Source: TPA_inf: Saccharomyces
Lineage: Eukaryota
Length of the DNA: 64,000 nucleotides
Direction of reading: 5' to 3'
Assembly (NCBI GenBank): GCA_000146045.2
Contig: BK006944.2
Coordinates: forward strand, 96,001 to 160,000
The first letter of the stretch is position 1. The number at the start of each line of letters is the position of its first letter. Below the pieces are notes generated by a model. The model ran no database searches. It was not told the DNA's origin and worked only from the letters and a program-made list of their open reading frames with translations. The translations under genes were made by a program, and so were the position numbers. Positions 7,601-54,687 of this stretch are shown piece after piece.

Positions 7601-10600
7601 TGAAGCTATTGAAAAAGTATTTAATGCTTATCCTGCCGCTAGGGAACAGTTCTTGAATGCGCAAGATATTGATCACTTTTTGAGCATGTGTCAAAATCCA
7701 ATGCAAAAACCAGTGCCTTTTGTTCCAGTTTTGGATCGTAGATTCGAGATTTTTTTCAAAAAAGATTCGTTATGGCAATCTGAGCACTTGGAAGCCGTCG
7801 TCGACCAAGACGTTCAAAGAACATGTATCCTACATGGACCTGTTGCAGCACAATTCACTAAAGTCATCGATGAACCAATTAAGAGCATTATGGATGGTAT
7901 TCACGATGGTCACATCAAAAAGTTACTACATCAATATTACGGTGACGATGAGTCAAAGATTCCAGCAGTTGAGTACTTTGGTGGTGAAAGCCCTGTAGAC
8001 GTACAAAGTCAAGTTGATTCTTCCTCTGTATCTGAAGACTCAGCTGTTTTTAAGGCAACATCCTCTACTGATGAAGAAAGCTGGTTTAAGGCTTTGGCGG
8101 GATCCGAAATTAACTGGAGACATGCAAGTTTCTTATGTTCCTTTATCACTCAAGATAAAATGTTTGTTTCTAACCCAATTAGAAAAGTTTTCAAGCCAAG
8201 CCAAGGAATGGTTGTTGAGATTTCCAACGGCAATACTTCTTCAAAGACTGTTGTCACTCTTTCAGAACCTGTTCAAGGTGAATTGAAACCAACTGTTATT
8301 TTGAAGTTGTTGAAGGAGAACATAATCCAAATGGAAATGATTGAGAACAGAACTATGGATGGTAAGCCCGTCAGCTTGCCATTGTTGTACAACTTCAACC
8401 CAGATAATGGTTTTGCTCCAATCTCTGAAGTTATGGAGGACAGAAACCAAAGAATTAAGGAAATGTACTGGAAATTATGGATTGATGAGCCTTTCAATTT
8501 GGACTTTGACCCAAGAGATGTCATTAAGGGCAAAGATTTCGAGATCACCGCTAAAGAAGTTTATGACTTTACACACGCTGTTGGAAACAATTGTGAAGAC
8601 TTCGTTTCTAGACCTGATAGAACGATGTTGGCCCCAATGGACTTTGCTATTGTTGTCGGATGGAGAGCCATCATCAAGGCCATTTTCCCTAATACGGTCG
8701 ATGGTGACTTATTGAAGTTGGTTCATTTGTCTAACGGCTACAAGATGATTCCTGGCGCTAAGCCACTGCAAGTTGGTGATGTTGTTTCAACTACTGCTGT
8801 TATTGAATCTGTCGTCAACCAACCTACAGGAAAGATTGTCGATGTGGTAGGTACATTATCGAGAAATGGCAAGCCTGTCATGGAAGTCACCTCCTCATTC
8901 TTCTACAGAGGCAACTATACTGACTTTGAAAACACTTTCCAAAAGACTGTTGAACCTGTTTATCAAATGCACATCAAAACTTCTAAAGATATAGCTGTCT
9001 TGCGCTCTAAGGAGTGGTTCCAATTGGACGATGAAGACTTCGATCTGTTAAACAAAACTTTGACTTTCGAAACTGAAACTGAAGTTACTTTCAAGAATGC
9101 TAACATCTTCTCTTCAGTGAAATGTTTTGGCCCAATTAAAGTTGAATTGCCAACCAAAGAAACCGTGGAGATCGGTATTGTCGATTACGAAGCCGGTGCC
9201 TCTCACGGTAACCCTGTTGTTGATTTCTTGAAGAGAAACGGTTCCACATTGGAACAAAAGGTCAATCTAGAAAATCCTATTCCAATTGCAGTACTTGATT
9301 CGTACACTCCAAGTACCAACGAACCATACGCTAGAGTTTCTGGTGATTTGAATCCAATTCACGTTTCACGTCATTTTGCCTCTTACGCAAACTTGCCAGG
9401 TACTATCACGCACGGTATGTTTTCTTCTGCTTCCGTCCGTGCTTTGATTGAAAACTGGGCTGCTGACAGTGTTTCATCCAGGGTACGTGGCTACACTTGT
9501 CAATTTGTTGACATGGTTTTGCCTAACACTGCTTTGAAAACATCGATTCAACATGTTGGTATGATCAATGGTAGAAAATTGATAAAGTTTGAAACTAGAA
9601 ATGAAGATGACGTTGTAGTTTTGACTGGTGAAGCCGAAATTGAACAACCTGTTACTACCTTCGTTTTCACTGGTCAAGGTTCACAAGAACAAGGTATGGG
9701 TATGGACTTATACAAAACTTCTAAAGCTGCTCAAGATGTTTGGAATAGAGCTGACAACCATTTCAAGGACACTTATGGTTTCTCTATCTTAGACATTGTC
9801 ATTAACAACCCAGTTAACTTAACAATTCACTTCGGTGGTGAAAAGGGTAAGAGGATCAGAGAAAACTATTCTGCTATGATCTTTGAGACTATCGTGGATG
9901 GAAAATTGAAGACTGAAAAAATTTTCAAGGAAATTAATGAGCACAGTACTTCTTACACATTTAGATCTGAAAAAGGTTTATTGTCTGCTACTCAATTTAC
10001 ACAACCAGCTTTAACTTTGATGGAAAAAGCTGCTTTCGAAGACTTGAAATCTAAAGGTTTGATCCCAGCCGATGCTACTTTTGCTGGTCACTCTTTAGGT
10101 GAGTATGCTGCTTTGGCCTCTTTGGCTGATGTTATGTCTATCGAATCTTTAGTTGAAGTTGTGTTCTACAGAGGTATGACTATGCAAGTTGCTGTTCCAA
10201 GAGATGAGTTGGGCAGATCCAACTATGGTATGATTGCCATTAACCCAGGTAGAGTCGCTGCATCATTCTCTCAAGAAGCTTTGCAATATGTTGTTGAGAG
10301 AGTTGGTAAGAGAACCGGCTGGTTGGTTGAAATCGTCAACTACAACGTTGAAAACCAACAATATGTTGCAGCTGGTGATCTAAGAGCTTTAGACACCGTT
10401 ACCAATGTTCTAAACTTCATCAAATTACAAAAAATTGATATTATTGAACTACAAAAGTCCTTATCTTTGGAAGAAGTTGAAGGTCATTTGTTTGAGATCA
10501 TTGACGAAGCTTCCAAGAAATCTGCTGTCAAGCCTCGCCCACTTAAATTGGAGAGAGGTTTTGCTTGTATCCCATTAGTTGGTATTTCTGTTCCTTTCCA

Positions 10601-10826: not shown

Positions 10827-11315
10827 TTTCTTAAGTGATTATATAACCGTAAGAAATATTTAACTTTGAAACTCCTGTATACTAATGTTTAATATAGCTG
10901 GCTTATGATTTTAGTTCTCTTCTCCTATTATAAATAGATACATTGATTAGGTATTTTTATAATATACTTGGGATTAACAGATGCTATATGAATTTTTTTT
11001 TCCGCCGCAAGCCCTCGCTAGGGCGGGGCAGATGCTGAAGAAAAAATTTTCTGTTCCATTGGGTTATGTTTAAAAATCAACGATATTCGAACATAATCGA
11101 TGACCTTGATGATTAGCGAAGTTCTGCTCTAAAGAAATTAGCTTTAAAAACAGCTCCATTATTAGTGTAAACTGCTACTTCAACTCTTTACTCGAAAAGT
11201 TGAAACAAGTGTCTATTCCGCACATCTCTGCAATAACCGAACCTTCACGATTTAGCTACAATCCCACATCTGCAGATTCTACCGTTTAATAGTCTTAATT
11301 TGAAGAGAAATAAAA

Positions 11316-12599
11316 ATGCGTAAGTGTAAAATTTTTGTTGGTAACTCTCACCCAGAGTTGGGTAATATGGTTTGCCAAAGATTAGGTATCGAACCAGCTC
11401 CATGTACATTAAAAAAATTTGCAAATGGTGAAACGTCAGTTCAAATCGGTGTATCTGTTCGTGACGAAGATGTGTATGTCATTCAATCTGGTTCTCCATC
11501 CATAAATGATGACATTATGGAACTGTTGATTTTAGTTTCTGCCTGTAGGGGCGGATCTGCTAGGAAAATTACAGCAGTCATTCCTCAATTTCCTTACTCT
11601 AAACAATGTAAAATGAAGAGACACAGAGGCGCTATTACTGCAAGGATGTTGGCCAATCTGTTGGTCATGGCTGGCGCTGATCATGTTGTGTCTATGGACC
11701 TTCATGCTTCTCAAATGCAGGGGTTTTTCACCAAACCAGTCGATAACCTATACGGGGGCCCTAGTTTAGCGAAATGGATTAGAGAAAATGTTGAAGACTA
11801 TGAAGATGCAGTAGTTGTCTCTAAGAATCCAGGTGGTACTAAAAGAGTTACAGCCCTGGCGGATTCTTTGAAGATCAACTTTGCTATGATCCATACTGAT
11901 CGTCGTCGTTCTAAGGATCTGTATTCTCAAAACAAGGATTTGCAACAACTAAAGTTGAGAAAGCAATCAATGTTGAGGAAAAATAGACCGATCATCAGAC
12001 AAGGTGACCATCCAAATGAGGAGGAAAACATTATTTTAAGTAACGGTATTCAAACTGCTAGGATCCGTAACGGCCACGTTATCGGTGACGATGAGGCAGA
12101 CGATGATGAAGACGCTATCTTAGAATCTGACAGCGAATTGCATTCTATTGATGGCTTAGACTCGCATGGCTTGGGCGGTACATATGATGCTGTCGACTCC
12201 GAAGACGAAGAGGAAATCCCAGTTCTCTATAGGGAACAACTGATTACATTGGTCGGAAACGTCCGTGGTCGCTCTGCCATCATTCTAGATGATATGATTG
12301 ATAGACCTGGGTCATTTATTAGCGCTGCTGAACATTTGGTGCAAAATTGTGGTGCCAAAAAGGTTTATGTTGTTGCTACTCACGGTATATTCACTGGAGA
12401 CTGTTTGGAAGAACTTGAAAAGTCCGATGCCATTGACACAATTGTGGTCACAAATACATATCCGATTTCTGGCGAACGCATAGCTGGGTCCAAGAAATTG
12501 GTTACTATCGATGTTTCTCCAATTTTCGCAGAATGTATCCGTCGTGATCATTATGGTGAGAGTATTTCCGTTTTATTTGACTCTTTGGCAGCTCTGTAA
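11316..12599 (+). CDS. PRS1: PRPP synthetase subunit 1, 427 aa, with the non-homologous NHR insertion.
   Basis: Ribose-phosphate pyrophosphokinase N- and C-terminal halves are split by a roughly 100-aa acidic insert (DDEADDDEDAILESDSE...), which is characteristic of yeast Prs1. Confidence 0.95.
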   Translation: MRKCKIFVGNSHPELGNMVCQRLGIEPAPCTLKKFANGETSVQIGVSVRDEDVYVIQSGSPSINDDIMELLILVSACRGGSARKITAVIPQFPYSKQCKMKRHRGAITARMLANLLVMAGADHVVSMDLHASQMQGFFTKPVDNLYGGPSLAKWIRENVEDYEDAVVVSKNPGGTKRVTALADSLKINFAMIHTDRRRSKDLYSQNKDLQQLKLRKQSMLRKNRPIIRQGDHPNEEENIILSNGIQTARIRNGHVIGDDEADDDEDAILESDSELHSIDGLDSHGLGGTYDAVDSEDEEEIPVLYREQLITLVGNVRGRSAIILDDMIDRPGSFISAAEHLVQNCGAKKVYVVATHGIFTGDCLEELEKSDAIDTIVVTNTYPISGERIAGSKKLVTIDVSPIFAECIRRDHYGESISVLFDSLAAL

Positions 12600-45793: not shown

Positions 45794-46819
45794 TTAACAG
45801 TTGAGCAAATCGATAGCTTGTAGGTGGACTGCATTACATTGAGTTCCAATGTGCTCATCGTATAAGTTGTAGAAGTTTCCTGACAAACATTGGTAAAAAG
45901 TATCCTGGTCACCGATGGCCAAGTTACCTTCTGGGGTGATGGACCAACCAGCAGCATAGATAGCACCAGCTTGTGGTGGAGGACCATCGAATTGGAATTG
46001 TCTGTTGGCAACGATAGAACCAATTCTACCTTTACCGTCAGTCAGGATACCACCCTTTAAGTTCATTTCTAAAGTGCCACTGCTTTTACATGTTTCAGCA
46101 GTTACTGGGTCAGTGCCATTAGTAATTGGAGCTGGAGCTGGAGATGGTATAATGGTTGCAGAAGTTAAAGTTGTGGCTTGGATTTGGCCATCAGTGATTT
46201 GGGAGACTGGAGCAACAGTAGTATTGGTGGTGGCTTGGATTTGACCGTCACCAATTTGAGAAACAGCAGCAGCAGTGGTTTTAGTAGTGGCTTGGATTTG
46301 ACCGTCACCAATTTGAGAGACAGCTGCAGCAGTTGTTTTGGTAGTGGCTTGGATTTGACCGTCACCAATTTGAGAGACAGCAGCAGCTTTGGTTTTAGTA
46401 GTGGCTTGAATTTGACCGTCACCAATTTGGGAGACGGCTGCAGCGGTAGTCTTAGCTGAGGTAGTCTTGGTGGTGGCTTGGATTTGGCCGTCACCAATTT
46501 GAGAGACAGCAGCAGCTTTGGTTTTAGTAGTGGCTTGGATTTGACCGTCACCAATTTGAGAAACAGCAGCAGCAGTGGTTTTGGTAGTGGCTTGGATTTG
46601 ACCGTCACCAATTTGAGAGATAGCAGCGGCTCTCTTAGCCTTGGAGGAAGCAGTAGTGGCAATTGGTTCAACAGCAATACCGAAAGTAGAAGAGTAATCA
46701 GTTATACCACCCTTGTAAGTAGCTGATGGAGTTAAAGTGGACCACGGGTCCTTTGGAGCATAGGCAGCTAAAGATGTAGCAACTAAGGCGGAGGCAACTA
46801 ATGATTTTTTGTATTGCAT
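45794..46819 (-). CDS. PIR1: PIR-family O-mannosylated cell-wall protein (alkali-extractable, beta-1,3-glucan-linked), 341 aa.
   Basis: Signal peptide, Kex2 site (SKAKR), eight tandem approx. 19-aa PIR repeats ([14 protein letters not shown]) and the conserved four-Cys C-terminal domain. Confidence 0.95.
46160..46650. repeat. Tandem 57-bp coding repeats (PIR units) inside PIR1, eight copies.
   Basis: ggcttggatttgaccgtcaccaatttgagagacagcagcagc... repeated head-to-tail. This explains the alternative-frame ORFs 46165..46677(-), 46178..46459(+) and 46478..46726(+). Confidence 0.9.
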
Positions 46820-48400: not shown

Positions 48401-49378
48401 ATGCAATATAAAAAGCCATTAGTCGTCTCCGCTTTAGCTGCTACATCTTTAGCTGCCTATGCTCCAAAGGACCCGTGGTCCACTTTAACTCCATCAGCTA
48501 CTTACAAGGGTGGTATAACAGATTACTCTTCGAGTTTCGGTATTGCTATTGAAGCCGTGGCTACCAGTGCTTCCTCCGTCGCCTCATCTAAAGCAAAGAG
48601 AGCCGCCTCTCAGATAGGTGATGGTCAAGTACAGGCTGCCACTACTACTGCTGCTGTTTCTAAGAAATCCACCGCTGCTGCTGTTTCTCAAATAACTGAC
48701 GGTCAAGTTCAAGCTGCTAAGTCTACTGCCGCTGCTGTTTCCCAAATAACTGACGGTCAAGTTCAAGCTGCTAAGTCTACTGCCGCTGCCGTTTCTCAAA
48801 TAACTGACGGTCAAGTTCAAGCTGCTAAGTCTACTGCCGCTGCCGTTTCTCAAATAACTGATGGTCAAGTTCAAGCTGCCAAGTCTACTGCTGCCGCTGC
48901 CTCTCAGATTTCTGACGGCCAAGTTCAGGCCACTACCTCTACTAAGGCTGCTGCATCCCAAATTACAGATGGGCAGATACAAGCATCTAAAACTACCAGT
49001 GGCGCTAGTCAAGTAAGTGATGGCCAAGTCCAGGCTACTGCTGAAGTGAAAGACGCTAACGATCCAGTCGATGTTGTTTCCTGTAATAACAATAGTACCT
49101 TGTCAATGAGTTTAAGCAAGGGTATCTTAACCGATAGGAAGGGTAGAATTGGCTCTATCGTTGCCAACAGACAGTTCCAATTCGATGGTCCTCCACCACA
49201 AGCTGGTGCTATCTATGCTGCTGGTTGGTCCATCACCCCAGAAGGTAACTTAGCTCTTGGTGACCAGGATACTTTTTACCAATGTTTGTCTGGTGACTTC
49301 TATAACTTGTATGATAAGCACATTGGTTCTCAGTGCCATGAAGTTTATTTGCAAGCTATAGATTTAATTGACTGTTGA
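48401..49378 (+). CDS. PIR3: PIR-family cell-wall protein, 325 aa.
   Basis: Same architecture as PIR1: signal peptide, KR site, about 8 PIR repeats ([14 protein letters not shown]), Cys-rich C-terminal domain. Divergently oriented to PIR1. Confidence 0.95.
48590..49030. repeat. Tandem 54-57-bp PIR coding repeats inside PIR3. Four central copies are nearly identical at the nucleotide level.
   Basis: gctgctgtttc(c/t)caaataactgacggtcaagttcaagctgctaagtctactgcc recurs four times in succession. Confidence 0.9.
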
Positions 49379-50004
49379 ACGATGCATCGATCAATCGGAG
49401 TCGTCCTCCTTTAACTTCACGAATTAGTTGCCACTCTCATTCCCCACACATAAACTTGTTTTATGGCATCCTTTTCATTTAGCATGTCTTTATTTCCAAA
49501 CCTTTCCTCGTTCTTTGCATTCATTTAGCGTTTGCTCGAGAAAGCATCACGTTTTCACACATTATCGTTCGTCGCTATAATAAAAATAGTTATAGAATTT
49601 ACTCAGATTTACATGTCGTACCTTTTTAATTGTAAAAAAAAAAATTTTATGATACATAATTACCTAAATATAATTCAGAATCAAACATACTTATAGCTAT
49701 TTGTATGCTATTAGGTGGTCCTGCTATAAAAATATCGTTTATAATACTTTATATTTTATCTTTCAACTTAGTCGCAATTGCAGAAGCTTTCCCTGAGAAA
49801 AAATTTGTGAAGCTAGCTGCGATAGCAAAGGAGCGCTTAAGGTATAGAAAAGCACTCAGCTGGAATGCCAAAAGATAGTTTAGCAACTGACCAAGGAAAA
49901 AGCTTGTAGGTAGACTTAACTTCATTGTTCTCTAATCCTTTCGTCGTGTATATTGTAAAAACTGCTGAACGAGTATTGATAAAAGATATCTTGGCCACTA
50001 AGGG

Positions 50005-50610
50005 GCAGATCCCCTTCTGGTGTGATAGACAACCCCAGGAGCATAGATAACACCAACTTGTGGTGGAGGGTCATCGAATTGGAATTGTCTGTTGGCAACA
50101 GTAGAACAGATGCTGCCCTTGCTATCTGTCAAAATGCCGCTCTTCAAAGTTACTTTCAAAGCGCTGTCACTGCTACGACAGCTTTTTTTTTAGAAACAGC
50201 AGCAATGCCTTGACATGTAACGTAAGAAAAGAAAAAAGAGATGGCAGAAGAAATACTAAGCGATAACGGCAATGTAGAGGTGCTTTTTTTATCGGAATAA
50301 ATAGAGAAGTCAGTAACAGTGATTGCTGTGGCTCCCTCTTTAATCGTATCTATGTAGGTTCCGATTAAAGTGGTCGTGATTCAGTATTTTTTTTACTAAT
50401 CAAAGTACATGCACTGTTTTTTGTGGGGATAGCAATGATTTCAATTTGGCCGTCAACGATCTAAGAAAAAACGTCTCTCTTAACCGTGGTAGATCCTGTT
50501 GTAATTGTTTGGACAGTGATACCGAAGAAGGAAGTAAATTCAGTAGCGCCGCATGAGGTAGTAGCAGAAGGAGTTAAGGTTGACCATGGCTCACTTGGCA
50601 TATACTGTTG
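50005..50610 (-). pseudogene. Decayed PIR-family gene relic (third PIR paralogue). N-terminal mature region, a single PIR-repeat remnant and the Cys-rich C-terminal domain are recognisable, but with stops, frameshifts and loss of both ends.
   Basis: 50005..50190 aligns at the DNA level with the minus strand of the PIR1/PIR3 C-terminal domain (GGTGGAGG.TCATCGAATTGGAATTGTCTGTTGGCAAC). 50440..50610 aligns with the N-terminal mature region plus one repeat (TTGGCCGTCAACGAT...GATACCGAAGAAGGAAGTAAATTCAGTAGC). No intact ORF exists. Confidence 0.7.
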
Positions 50611-51629
50611 GGCAGAAACAGTATAGTGAAACTGTTATCAAACCAATATATTTGGGCTACATGGCTTTCCTTTCCCGAAAAAGACACCATTTAGTAATTA
50701 TGTTGTACTTTTACTCTCTGAACTTCTGTGAATATAAAAAATATACTAAATAAAAGGATGCAACTTCCTTAAAGAGGGCAAGATAGCGACATAAAGTGGA
50801 AAAGTGTTAGCAACATTGCGCAGGCATCGATTAATATATGCATATATACTTTTTACGTAGTCTACGTTAAATTGTCAATAGATCAAGCAGAATCGGTAGC
50901 TCTGTTAAGCGATTAAGCCCAGTGGCTTTTTGTCGCACCGTTTAGGTTCGCGTTAGCAAGATGGAAAAAAAAGAACGCGAATCATGTATTGACGTATGAC
51001 GTATTAGGCAATTTACAAGATTAAACTTAAATTTGCGACGGAGTTTTGAAGTAGAACGAACACCTTACTCATCCGCAACAGGAAATTTTCACGCAGAACG
51101 TGCCTAAGAAAAAAAAATCATATGCGTTTACAGGCACAAATGAAGAAAATGACCGGATATGGATATAAGCTTATGGAAGAAATTGCTCCTATTGAGTTAA
51201 GAATATGCGAGCGAGACCTGCATAAGGCTAATTATAACTCTTCAACCCAAATTTGTCTTTCTCTTCACACCCATCTCTTATAGTCCCATATATTCATATG
51301 AAAGTTCAATGCTTAGACTCAGTGTGTACTTATGATGTCGTTGAAGGCTATTTGGTCTACTGAAAATCCTACCTCGTACGAATACCCTTATAGTATTATT
51401 TAAATATGGGGTTACTATTCGCATTCGTTAGAGTGGTGGGAAATTGATATCTTGTTTGGGAGTTGCGAAACAAAAGAGGAGAAGATATGCGCGCTATGTT
51501 TTTCTTAAAAGAATGCCTACTGCCTATGAAATGAATATACTAAACGTAAAAGTGTAGATAATAGAAACAAAGATTAAGGTCGCTTACTGTAAAAAACGTC
51601 TTCATTTTAATTCAACGAAATAAAAGAAA

Positions 51630-52838
51630 TCACGTGGAGTGTAGCACCGCCAAAGAGCTATTTTTTATGTCTTCTAGTTGAGGCCTATTTCCATTCTGCG
51701 ACGAAAGTGTGCTTCTCTCACTTGGGCTAATCCATTTTTCAACAAAATCAGCAACGTCTTCGACTTCGCAGCTACTAGAAGAACTGTTAATACCATTATA
51801 AATGTTCTGTAACTGTAAGAAGTCCGTCATGAAGCATATTCTTCCACTCCGTTTGTCTGAAAATATTGAATCCGAATATGGCTGTACTATCTGGCTAGAT
51901 CCCGTCGGCCGTGGGCTTATTAAACTCTTTAATAACGATATTATTGTTGGGCTCGATCTTTGCGGGGTGTCTACAATGAAAAGTCTATGTTCTGGAATAT
52001 TATTCTTGATTGTCATCAATATCTCAATTAATTTAGTGGGGATATAAAGTTCTTTACCAGGACTTACATGGGATCGATCATTGAACATTTGTTCTAATGC
52101 AAGTTCACATGAGTAGTCAATGGCGCTATCAAAGCTCTTGGATTTTTGTCCATTCTTATTGATATCCACAAAGCACTGTTGCCACCCTTTGTCATCTGAA
52201 GAGTACCTTACTAAATCGTGGGTTGTGTATTTTATAACATCATTAAGCATCAAAATTTGGATTGGATCCTCTATGTGAAATTTTTTCTGTAAAAAATATG
52301 GGGAAACCGGATAATCTTGTACCAAACTGACTGATCCAGGTATTCCGTCTAAGAGCTTCGAAGGTATTTTGTCACACTTGTATAGAGGTACCATGAAATA
52401 TTTTATTTTCTGGAACATGTTATCAGATAAAGTAGACTTGAGATATGACATTAAATTTTTGCAAATCTGAATTGCTTGGGGTAAATCCGTGTAAATATTC
52501 ACAATGTTAAGATCGTAATAAGGATAGTCATTTAATTTGTAATTAACCAGTAGCCATTTGGCAAGGCATTTGCTAAATTGTGGCTCACAGTCAAGAATGT
52601 TATCAAATGAAAAGGGTTCTTCTTTTGCGGTTGTAGTTACAGGCTTCCTTTGCGTAAAAAAATTTTCTCTTTTCATTATGTTTGGGAAATTTTGCCACTC
52701 TATGTAATCTTTCAAAGAAATTCTCGCAGTTTGGCCTCTTCTTATCCCATTTGTAGAGAGTAATTGCTCGAAAGTAAACAGTGGGTAATCAGATTTCAGA
52801 TGAACTTGAATTCTCAAGGGGTGTAATCTTTTCATCAT
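51630..52838 (-). CDS. Uncharacterised protein (YKL162C-like), 402 aa.
   Basis: 402-aa ATG ORF in the position of YKL162C. No recognisable catalytic motifs. Confidence 0.8.
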   Translation of the reverse strand: MMKRLHPLRIQVHLKSDYPLFTFEQLLSTNGIRRGQTARISLKDYIEWQNFPNIMKRENFFTQRKPVTTTAKEEPFSFDNILDCEPQFSKCLAKWLLVNYKLNDYPYYDLNIVNIYTDLPQAIQICKNLMSYLKSTLSDNMFQKIKYFMVPLYKCDKIPSKLLDGIPGSVSLVQDYPVSPYFLQKKFHIEDPIQILMLNDVIKYTTHDLVRYSSDDKGWQQCFVDINKNGQKSKSFDSAIDYSCELALEQMFNDRSHVSPGKELYIPTKLIEILMTIKNNIPEHRLFIVDTPQRSSPTIISLLKSLISPRPTGSSQIVQPYSDSIFSDKRSGRICFMTDFLQLQNIYNGINSSSSSCEVEDVADFVEKWISPSERSTLSSQNGNRPQLEDIKNSSLAVLHST

Positions 52839-53385
52839 TCAATCCCGCCAAAAGCACCTTTAAATGATATCAACTTTTTTGTGAAAATATTAGTAAGCTA
52901 TTTAAAACGGGAAAGAAAACTTGAGAGAGGACTGACGAGGGAATCATGTTTATATTCGGATCATCGCGAATCTACGCAATGGTGTATCCTACTTTCTCAC
53001 ATTTTGGTTTTTCCCGCTTTCGGAAGGAACTGCAAAACCGCCGAGAGGACTTTCTCTTTTTGCAATATTTGAAGTATATACCAATAATTAAGAAGGTGAA
53101 CAGGCATTTTACATATTCATTATAGATAGTGTATGTGCGCATCTATTAGTTGTGGTTTTCTGCTACAAAAATTTATCGTCTAAATAATTCAAGTTCTTTT
53201 TCTAGGTCGAAGAAAAAATCGCTGTCATCCTCATTTGTATTTTGGTTTGTACCATCATTGACATTTATATCGTGACCTGGGGGAGACGATGAAACTGGGC
53301 TCATTTTTGTTATATTTGGCTCAGTAGGTCCGTTCAGTAGTTCACTATTTTCATGCTTAGTATCTTGTTTGAAGGTGTTTTCCTT

Positions 53386-54687
53386 TTAGTTAACACCCTG
53401 AAATGAATTAGAGCTTATTCCCATAAGGTTTTGATATGGCTGGGTTGTAGTTAGTGATGGAAGTTGGCTTACATAGGAAAATTCAGGACTATAACTGGGT
53501 AAAACTTTCCTAGAAGGATGGACCTGTACAACTTCTTGAGGAATGGCATCCTCTAAAGATAGTGATGATGATGGGGAATCACCGCTAATAGGATGTTTTC
53601 TAACAACTTTCCTGAAATCAAATACTTCCTTTATAACTTCGTTTCCTAATTCCGCCATACTTTCGATATGCTCGAATTCGAATCTAAAGGTCTTTTGACA
53701 TGAGAATTCCTCATCTATATCATGCCACATTGACAAATATGGATGCTCTAGTGCATCCTCTACAGTAATCCTTTTTTTAGGATCAAATTCTAGCATTTTC
53801 TTTAGCAATTCAAGCGCTTCTGGATTAGCACCAGGTAGTATGCTTTCAAACGATCTTCCCGGGATATTACCGAACTGAAAGATATAATTATACACCTTTT
53901 GAGAGGCAATTTCCTGCAATGTTTCCTCAGGTGGTGTTCCAAGTATTTGTAGAATATGATTCAAATGATCTACATAATCCTTCCCTTCAAACATTGGTTT
54001 CCTACCAAGTAGTTCGGCCAAGATACAGCCTGTTGACCAAATATCGACAGCTTTTGTGCATTCTTGATAATTCAGCAAAATTTCTGGTGCTTTATACCAT
54101 ATCGAGGTTATATAACCCTTAATGAAGCCGTCGTTAACCTTGTGGTTTTCTGAATAACTACACGATAGCCCAAAATTACAAATTTTTAGTTGGCAATCAC
54201 TATTAACAAGTAAGTTTTTTGGTTTCAGGTCACAATGTAAAACATTAGCAGAATGTATGTATTTCAGAGCACACAGTATCTGATATATGAAGCTTTGAAA
54301 GTGTGCGTCTTCCAGGCGTTGTTCGGACCTTATAATTTGAGAAAGGTCACATTCCATTAGTTCTTCATATAAATAAACGCCATTTAGTGCCCCATTTGGG
54401 TAAAATACTATATCAGTATCGAAGAGCCACACTATATTTGGGTGCCCTCTTAAATGTCTTAGTAGTTTCAATTCACGAAGAGTTCTCTTGCAAGATAGTT
54501 TATTGCCAAACGCGTTTGGTATTTTTCTGATAGCCACGTGAGTTTCCTCGTTCGATTCTGTGTAAGTTGAAGAACAAATAAGGCTGTGTGAGCCCCGACC
54601 AATCTTACCTGTCAAATGAAAATGTTTATTTAGGATAAAATCTTGGCCGAATGCACGGAAAATACACCTCTCGGTGTCAGTCGCCAT
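53386..54687 (-). CDS. KDX1: MAP-kinase-like protein, Slt2 paralogue (pseudokinase-like), 433 aa.
   Basis: MAPK fold with the VAIK catalytic Lys replaced by Arg (HVAIRKIP) and the activation-loop TEY replaced by KGY (FIKGYITSIWYKAPE); HCDLKPKN and DFGLS motifs are present. Confidence 0.92.
   Translation of the reverse strand: MATDTERCIFRAFGQDFILNKHFHLTGKIGRGSHSLICSSTYTESNEETHVAIRKIPNAFGNKLSCKRTLRELKLLRHLRGHPNIVWLFDTDIVFYPNGALNGVYLYEELMECDLSQIIRSEQRLEDAHFQSFIYQILCALKYIHSANVLHCDLKPKNLLVNSDCQLKICNFGLSCSYSENHKVNDGFIKGYITSIWYKAPEILLNYQECTKAVDIWSTGCILAELLGRKPMFEGKDYVDHLNHILQILGTPPEETLQEIASQKVYNYIFQFGNIPGRSFESILPGANPEALELLKKMLEFDPKKRITVEDALEHPYLSMWHDIDEEFSCQKTFRFEFEHIESMAELGNEVIKEVFDFRKVVRKHPISGDSPSSSLSLEDAIPQEVVQVHPSRKVLPSYSPEFSYVSQLPSLTTTQPYQNLMGISSNSFQGVN

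Follow-up and report, generated by a model that had tools for sequence, protein, structure and literature searches.

A full-length Pir-family pseudogene between PIR3 and YKL162C on Saccharomyces cerevisiae chromosome XI, very probably the remnant of PIR6

Our data show that the window (i.e., the whole 64,000-nucleotide stretch of Saccharomyces DNA subjected to our analysis) contains a full-length Pir-family pseudogene, and not a missed gene, at positions 49880..50662 of the minus strand. This element is very probably the non-functional remnant of PIR6, the whole-genome-duplication (WGD) partner of CIS3/PIR4. That explanation is built on homology, extent, lesions, synteny, phylogeny, and a neutral pattern of change, all observed here; when the gene was lost and that it has no function are inferred, and the WGD origin and the expression data are taken from the literature.

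According to this explanation, PIR6 is the sixth Saccharomyces Pir cell-wall mannoprotein gene, and its ancestral copy was located between PIR3 and YKL162C. Its ancestral product is predicted to have been a secreted protein of ~250 aa with a signal peptide, subunit I, a Kex2 site, one Pir repeat, a Ser/Thr linker, and a four-Cys C-terminal domain. In the S. cerevisiae lineage, selection on PIR6 would have been lost at about the time when S. paradoxus split off, and drift at the neutral rate would thereafter have introduced five premature stops, four frameshifting indels, and two in-frame insertions, with indels still segregating today. The relic is expected to yield no Pir protein.

The PIR3-YKL162C interval and the extent of the relic

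The gene order in the window (S. cerevisiae chromosome XI) is MCD4, PIR1, PIR3, an ORF-poor interval, YKL162C, a KDX1-like kinase gene, ELF1, and RCN1. The genes that border or lie near the relic are the following:

45794..46819, minus strand: PIR1, 341 aa in the window
48401..49378, plus strand: PIR3, 325 aa in the window
51630..52838, minus strand: YKL162C-like methyltransferase gene, named from Pfam labels
53386..54687: KDX1-like kinase ORF, 433 aa

The interval between PIR3 and YKL162C spans 2.25 kb (49379..51629) and is devoid of a long ORF. A tRNA scan of 49379..51629 gave no match, and an Rfam scan of the same segment (E up to 1) returned nothing credible, its sole match being a viral pseudoknot with 22.6 bits, below the gathering score. 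The length of the PIR3 product itself differs between S. cerevisiae assemblies (280, 305, 325, 343, 379, 397, and 415 aa), a spread that represents repeat copy-number polymorphism directly beside the relic.

An earlier note, made from the sequence of the window, had proposed that this interval carries minus-strand Pir homology, and the searches bear this out. When the PIR1 and PIR3 proteins of the window were compared with 49379..51629 using tblastn, residues 16-76 of PIR1 matched 50616..50440 (E 5e-13), while residues 242-291 matched 50186..50034 and residues 291-341 matched 50035..49883 (joint E 1e-25), all on the minus strand. These three blocks are collinear, and the final one reaches the last residue of PIR1 (341). 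The observed scores were 55-90 bits, compared with a maximum of 24.3 and a mean of 17.1 bits in 100 shuffles of the interval. Hence, the two blocks recognized earlier, namely an N-terminal part with a repeat remnant and a C-terminal domain, are real and had been placed correctly.

At the nucleotide level, blastn revealed 73-78% identity of the relic to PIR1/PIR3 over 164-275 nt of the C-terminal domain, and 75.2% identity to the S. paradoxus-like PIR6 over 779 nt (E 5e-148). A MAFFT nucleotide alignment showed that the relic is collinear, from ATG to stop, with intact orthologues from five species, and it is therefore a full-length pseudogene rather than a two-piece fragment. Its true span is 49880..50662 instead of the 50005..50610 initially assigned to it. 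The extreme C-terminus, believed to be missing, is in place, with the alignment extending through the last residue as far as the ancestral TAA (49882..49880). The same applies to the signal-peptide and start region, where the ancestral ATG (50662..50660) is followed by a TAG, a signal-peptide remnant, and a 2-bp deletion. The middle part (50187..50439), described as degraded, aligns codon by codon with the Ser/Thr-rich linker of intact orthologues; it looked degraded because the comparison had been made with PIR1/PIR3, which do not have the PIR6 linker. The parts of the relic are as follows:

49880..50662, minus strand: whole PIR6 pseudogene (REMPIR6 / REMYKL162C-A), 783 bp, from the ancestral ATG to the ancestral TAA
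50605..50662, minus strand: start codon and signal-peptide remnant, with ATG at 50662..50660, TAG as codon 2, and a 2-bp deletion after 50624
50467..50604, minus strand: subunit-I region, including a Kex2-type Lys-Arg site at ~50481..50476
50440..50466, minus strand: remnant of the single Pir repeat (S*IVDGQIE), with TAG at 50463..50461 in place of the Gln of the SQI motif
50187..50439, minus strand: Ser/Thr-rich linker specific to the PIR6 lineage, aligning to orthologue residues ~89-150 (ITTTLTRT...STLAPS...TCQ)
49883..50186, minus strand: C-terminal PIR1-like_C domain, with +G at 50036, TGA at 49924..49922, and TAA at 49918..49916

The lesions, likewise on the minus strand, are distributed over the whole length:

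50659..50657, minus strand: premature stop 1, TAG at ancestral codon 2
50463..50461, minus strand: premature stop 2, TAG at the Gln of the SQI motif in the sole Pir repeat
50192..50190, minus strand: premature stop 3, TAA in the linker
49924..49922, minus strand: premature stop 4, TGA replacing a conserved Cys
49918..49916, minus strand: premature stop 5, TAA in the C-terminal domain
after 50624, minus strand: frameshift 1, -2 in the signal-peptide region
50382..50381, minus strand: frameshift 2, +GA in the linker
after 50196, minus strand: frameshift 3, -1 in the linker
50036, minus strand: frameshift 4, +G in the C-terminal domain
50422..50420, minus strand: in-frame insertion 1, +AAA in the linker
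50223..50221, minus strand: in-frame insertion 2, +ACG in the linker

Collectively, the multi-species alignment yields five premature stops and six indels, of which four shift the frame and two are in-frame insertions. The view that in-frame stops and frameshifts mark a pseudogene rather than a missed gene is thus upheld, and because of the five stops and four frameshifting indels the relic is a member of the Pir family by descent only.

Further inspection of the individual parts supplied additional details. Codon 2 is CAA, CAG, or CGG in the orthologues and TAG in the relic (50659..50657), and the start region of the relic reads M...TVSAQQ vs. MQLKRIALAAASLTAVSAQG in S. uvarum. Signal-peptide DNA is present there, but it is broken by the TAG and by the 2-bp deletion. 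The subunit-I region displays 59-62% identity to the Pir6 proteins of S. uvarum and S. eubayanus and 54% to CIS3 (tblastn), and the Kex2 Lys-Arg site has been kept (TTVKRDVF). The Pir-repeat remnant gave no match to Pfam PF00399; the intact orthologues themselves score 19.6-20.6 bits, just below the cut-off of 20.9. The frame-corrected translation matches Pfam PF22799 (PIR1-like_C) with 67 bits (E 2.4e-18; cut-off 27.6). Two of the four C-terminal cysteines are lost, since C2 is substituted (YQC to YQY) and C3 is the TGA at 49924..49922, and C1 (KSCRSS) and C4 (terminal SC) are retained.

The residual reading frame YKL162C-A

The relic had been taken to be unlisted. In fact, it contains an annotated ORF, and the whole relic has been published (PMC10483737; bioRxiv 10.1101/2023.09.07.545205). 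The annotated ORF is the following:

49922..50074, minus strand: YKL162C-A, 50 aa (MTLHHKLV...IREQ)

This ORF is identical to the entry [quoted passage not shown] in the protein collection. Its first ~15 residues are outside the ancestral frame and its last 35 are within it. The ORF begins out of register with the ancestral frame until the +G at 50036 restores it, so that the likeness of the ORF product to Pir proteins is limited to the last 35 residues, and its Pfam score (21 bits) is below the threshold.

YKL162C-A is most likely a chance open frame in a dead gene. It has been speculated that it is instead a young functional gene encoding a secreted 50-aa peptide of respiring or sporulating cells, with a signal sequence derived from frameshifted DNA of the former C-terminal domain (PMC10483737). 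We consider this improbable, although several observations reported in that paper would fit such a peptide: the N-terminus acts as a signal sequence and drives secretion when over-expressed from the TEF1 promoter, transcription of the segment occurs in diploids that respire or sporulate, with a footprint limited to the ORF in YPA and sporulation medium, and hints from ribosome profiling are mentioned (PMC10483737). In addition, a length of 50 codons is common to all 12 recorded protein alleles, found on at least 160 contigs, in a set that is biased in that it holds only ORFs that annotators could call.

However, no protein was detected from the native promoter under several growth and stress conditions (PMC10483737), and safe-harbour integrations routinely disrupt the locus (PMC11006607). 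Moreover, ten nonsynonymous variants at 9 of the 50 positions (V8M, M11V, T18A, G21R, P24R/H, S26N, Q28E, D29Y, and E45K) segregate among assemblies, with the Q28E allele on 88 contigs vs. 44 for the reference allele. In L018, the sole differing assembly that was not chosen for an identical ORF, both differences within YKL162C-A are nonsynonymous. Finally, the ORF segment has diverged from the S. paradoxus-like copy as much as the rest of the relic and the intergenic flanks.

Intact orthologues and the relation to CIS3

A protein search with the concatenated translation of the relic ranked two 253-aa proteins, one from S. uvarum (SUVZ_11G0550) and one from S. pastorianus/eubayanus, above CIS3 and every PIR1/PIR3/HSP150 entry; the S. 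paradoxus PIR6 was not among the returns of this search. The S. uvarum gene sits between the PIR3 and YKL162C orthologues and is oriented relative to its neighbors as in the relic. The orthologous loci of an S. paradoxus-like contig, S. mikatae, S. kudriavzevii, and S. arboricola were fetched with YKL162C as anchor. In each of them, as well as in S. uvarum, an intact ORF of 247-259 aa is located ~1 kb downstream of YKL162C on the same strand, and the conserved order is MCD4-PIR1-PIR3-PIR6-YKL162C-KDX1-ELF1-RCN1. The comparison with other Saccharomyces species that had been suggested as a check thus uncovered an intact PIR gene at the same position. Pfam PIR1-like_C is recorded for the called products of the S. 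paradoxus-like contig, S. mikatae, and S. kudriavzevii, and the S. arboricola PIR6 is an open ORF that lacks a gene call. YKL162C of the S. paradoxus-like contig has 88.5% nucleotide identity to that of the window, and PIR6 of this contig has 75% identity to the relic, the latter being the published figure for S. paradoxus CBS432.

These loci also show gaps in gene calling and a difference in the kinase gene. The S. mikatae record lacks a kinase gene call in the ELF1-YKL162C segment even though the spacing is conserved, and in S. arboricola most genes of the locus are uncalled, including the open PIR6 ORF at 8160..8933 of the fetched locus; both are probably annotation gaps. The KDX1-like kinase has 433 aa in the window, shorter than the 504-508 aa of its counterparts from S. 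uvarum, S. kudriavzevii, and the S. paradoxus-like contig. With tblastn, residues 1-501 of the S. paradoxus-like kinase align in one frame that continues ~67 codons beyond the stop of the window (extra DNA at 53185..53388, minus strand), which argues that a premature stop in the window strain removes a conserved acidic C-terminal tail.

A neighbor-joining tree (226 columns, 500 bootstraps) placed the relic inside the syntenic Pir6 clade with 100% bootstrap support and as sister to the S. paradoxus-like PIR6 with 76%. This clade groups with CIS3 and CIS3-like proteins, to the exclusion of PIR1/PIR3, again with 100% support. The N-terminal block scores 87-90 bits against Pir6, 75.5 against CIS3, and 54-55 against PIR1/PIR3; the C-terminal domain gives similar scores for CIS3, PIR1, and PIR3. 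Judged by the tree and the N-terminal block, the relic is closest to the syntenic PIR6 genes and, among S. cerevisiae genes, to CIS3. Consequently, the idea of a third PIR1/PIR3-like copy holds as far as membership of the Pir family is concerned, but the nearest kin are the syntenic PIR6 genes and CIS3.

In S. cerevisiae, the CIS3 locus on chromosome X has the layout CIS3(+)-HSP150(-)-YJL160C(+), which is mirrored on chromosome XI of the other species by PIR6(+)-PIR3(-)-PIR1(+). This three-gene layout supports the published view of the relic as the WGD paralogue of CIS3 (PMC10483737; bioRxiv 10.1101/2023.09.07.545205). With respect to HSP150 (11254..12453 of record L019), a simple blastp comparison gave 444 bits (71%) with PIR1 and 380 bits (63%) with PIR3 of the window. 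In the literature, it is PIR3 that is regarded as the ohnologue of HSP150. This comparison is probably confounded by repeat number and possible concerted evolution.

Could the relic nevertheless be a truncated third tandem copy of the PIR1/PIR3 type, devoid of both ends and of note chiefly as a recombination or conversion partner? The C-terminal domain does share 73-78% nucleotide identity with PIR1/PIR3, and PIR3 is only 0.5 kb away. Nevertheless, we regard such an origin as very improbable: both ends are present, the tree and the N-terminal block group the relic with PIR6 and CIS3, five species carry intact orthologues at this position, and the relic has one repeat remnant and a linker of the PIR6 type. 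In addition, the exact matches of the relic do not exceed 28 bp with PIR1 and 15 bp with PIR3, compared with 81 bp between PIR1 and PIR3. The 28-mer GTTGCCAACAGACAATTCCAATTCGATG, which encodes VANRQFQFD, also occurs in the S. mikatae PIR6, PIR1, and PIR3, and therefore reflects ancestral conservation and not a conversion tract. Gene conversion or recombination of the relic with PIR1/PIR3 was rejected on the basis of these short matches and of the ancestral nature of the 28-mer. Yeast mismatch repair strongly suppresses recombination between sequences that are >20% diverged, so that the relic, at 22-27% divergence, is a poor partner, and the proposal that it could still recombine with PIR1/PIR3 appears weak in view of both the exact matches and the 73-78% identity.

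Neutral decay of PIR6 and comparison with known Pir genes

A set of 12 S. cerevisiae assemblies has the five stops and three of the four frameshifts without exception, whereas 20 of 862 alignment columns vary among them, including two segregating indels. A 2-bp deletion at 50627..50628 is found in L012, L014, and L017, and an extra C after 50381 occurs in 9 of the 11 other assemblies and is missing from the window, L008, and L013. Owing to this extra C, the +2 frameshift of the window is an in-frame +3 in most strains. Fixed lesions together with segregating indels match the prediction of continuing neutral decay. No intact S. cerevisiae copy was present in the 13 assemblies surveyed. The possibility that the lesions stem from errors of assembly or from a single strain, with a truly intact gene in S. 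cerevisiae, can be practically dismissed, as we found no point in its support, the same stops and most frameshifts recur in 12 independent assemblies and in L020, and no intact copy is reported from 94 + 1011 strains (bioRxiv 10.1101/2023.09.07.545205).

With four outgroups used to polarize the changes, we calculated the substitutions per site on the S. cerevisiae branch at codon positions 1/2/3. The rates were 0.17/0.14/0.16 for the relic (37/32/28 changes) and 0.035/0.031/0.119 for YKL162C, and 0.06/0.05/0.09 for PIR6 on the S. paradoxus-like branch. Hence, the rate of the relic is flat over codon positions and at least equals the third-position rate of its functional neighbor YKL162C. Identity to the S. 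paradoxus-like sequence amounts to 75.5% for the relic, 72.5% and 75.1% for the upstream and downstream intergenic flanks, respectively, 88.5% for YKL162C, and 93.1% for the 3' end of PIR3. Flat rates over codon positions and an identity equal to that of the intergenic flanks point to neutral drift since about the species split. A rough mixture calculation for positions 1+2 (0.153 observed, 0.157 neutral, and 0.053 constrained) suggests that nearly the entire S. cerevisiae branch passed without constraint and that the loss may have occurred early after the split from S. paradoxus, an estimate with a wide error that is based on one S. paradoxus-like sequence and a parsimony count over ~630 sites.

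The S. paradoxus-like PIR6 (L002, 8208..8984) is an open ORF, but it has itself acquired six substitutions of its own in alignment columns that do not vary among 14 other intact Pir proteins (e.g., in PWSTL, in the segment that now reads VANGQFQSD, and YQCLSG to YQCSSG), compared with two in S. mikatae PIR6 and none in four other species, and its rate at codon positions 1+2 is ~3-fold that of its neighbor. On the evidence of this single contig, constraint on PIR6 may be relaxed in S. paradoxus too, and may already have been weakening before the S. cerevisiae/S. paradoxus split. If this is true, the S. paradoxus PIR6 is perhaps also heading for loss.

The element is already known, being partly annotated as YKL162C-A and described twice. 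One description is the section "S. cerevisiae encodes a Pir6 remnant" in PMC10483737 (Microb Cell Fact 2023). The other, "Core gene set of the species Saccharomyces cerevisiae," names REMYKL162C-A (REMPIR6) at chrXI 145880-146662 on the Crick strand and reports 75% identity to the S. paradoxus PIR6 and five in-frame stops (bioRxiv 10.1101/2023.09.07.545205). With an offset of +96000, these coordinates are exactly 49880..50662 of the window. The main texts of two papers on yeast pseudogenes and relics (PMC2822764 and PMC2876123) do not mention PIR1, PIR3, CIS3, or YKL162, and the element is likewise not named in PMC2447204, the re-annotation paper of 2001.

Given its published WGD origin, the element is an ordinary example of the loss of one of two WGD duplicates, with little import beyond bookkeeping. 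It does correct the S. cerevisiae Pir set to five genes plus one dead sixth, and the relic offers an internal neutral-rate yardstick beside a family that evolves through changes in repeat number. What the present study adds is the apparent neutrality over essentially the whole S. cerevisiae branch and the possibly weakened constraint on the S. paradoxus copy.

Compared with known systems, the relic is the same element as the published REMPIR6, and nothing substantive differs. The preprint counts 8 indels (6 out of frame; bioRxiv 10.1101/2023.09.07.545205) vs. 6 (4) here, a gap that stems from alignment choice in the low-complexity linker. With PIR6 of S. paradoxus, S. mikatae, S. kudriavzevii, S. 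arboricola, S. uvarum, and S. eubayanus, the relic shares position, strand, length, and domain order at 67-75% nucleotide identity, but these orthologues are open (247-259 aa) and the S. cerevisiae copy is disabled. CIS3/PIR4 (YJL158C) resembles the relic in its single Pir repeat (a remnant in the relic), its CIS3-type N-terminus, and its slot in the mirrored three-gene Pir cluster, whereas it is intact and functional, the linkers are unrelated, and nucleotide similarity is confined to two blocks (69-77%). PIR1/PIR3 have the C-terminal domain and one motif in common with the relic, yet they contain multiple repeats and an N-terminus of another subtype, do not have the PIR6 linker, and fall outside the clade formed by PIR6 and CIS3.
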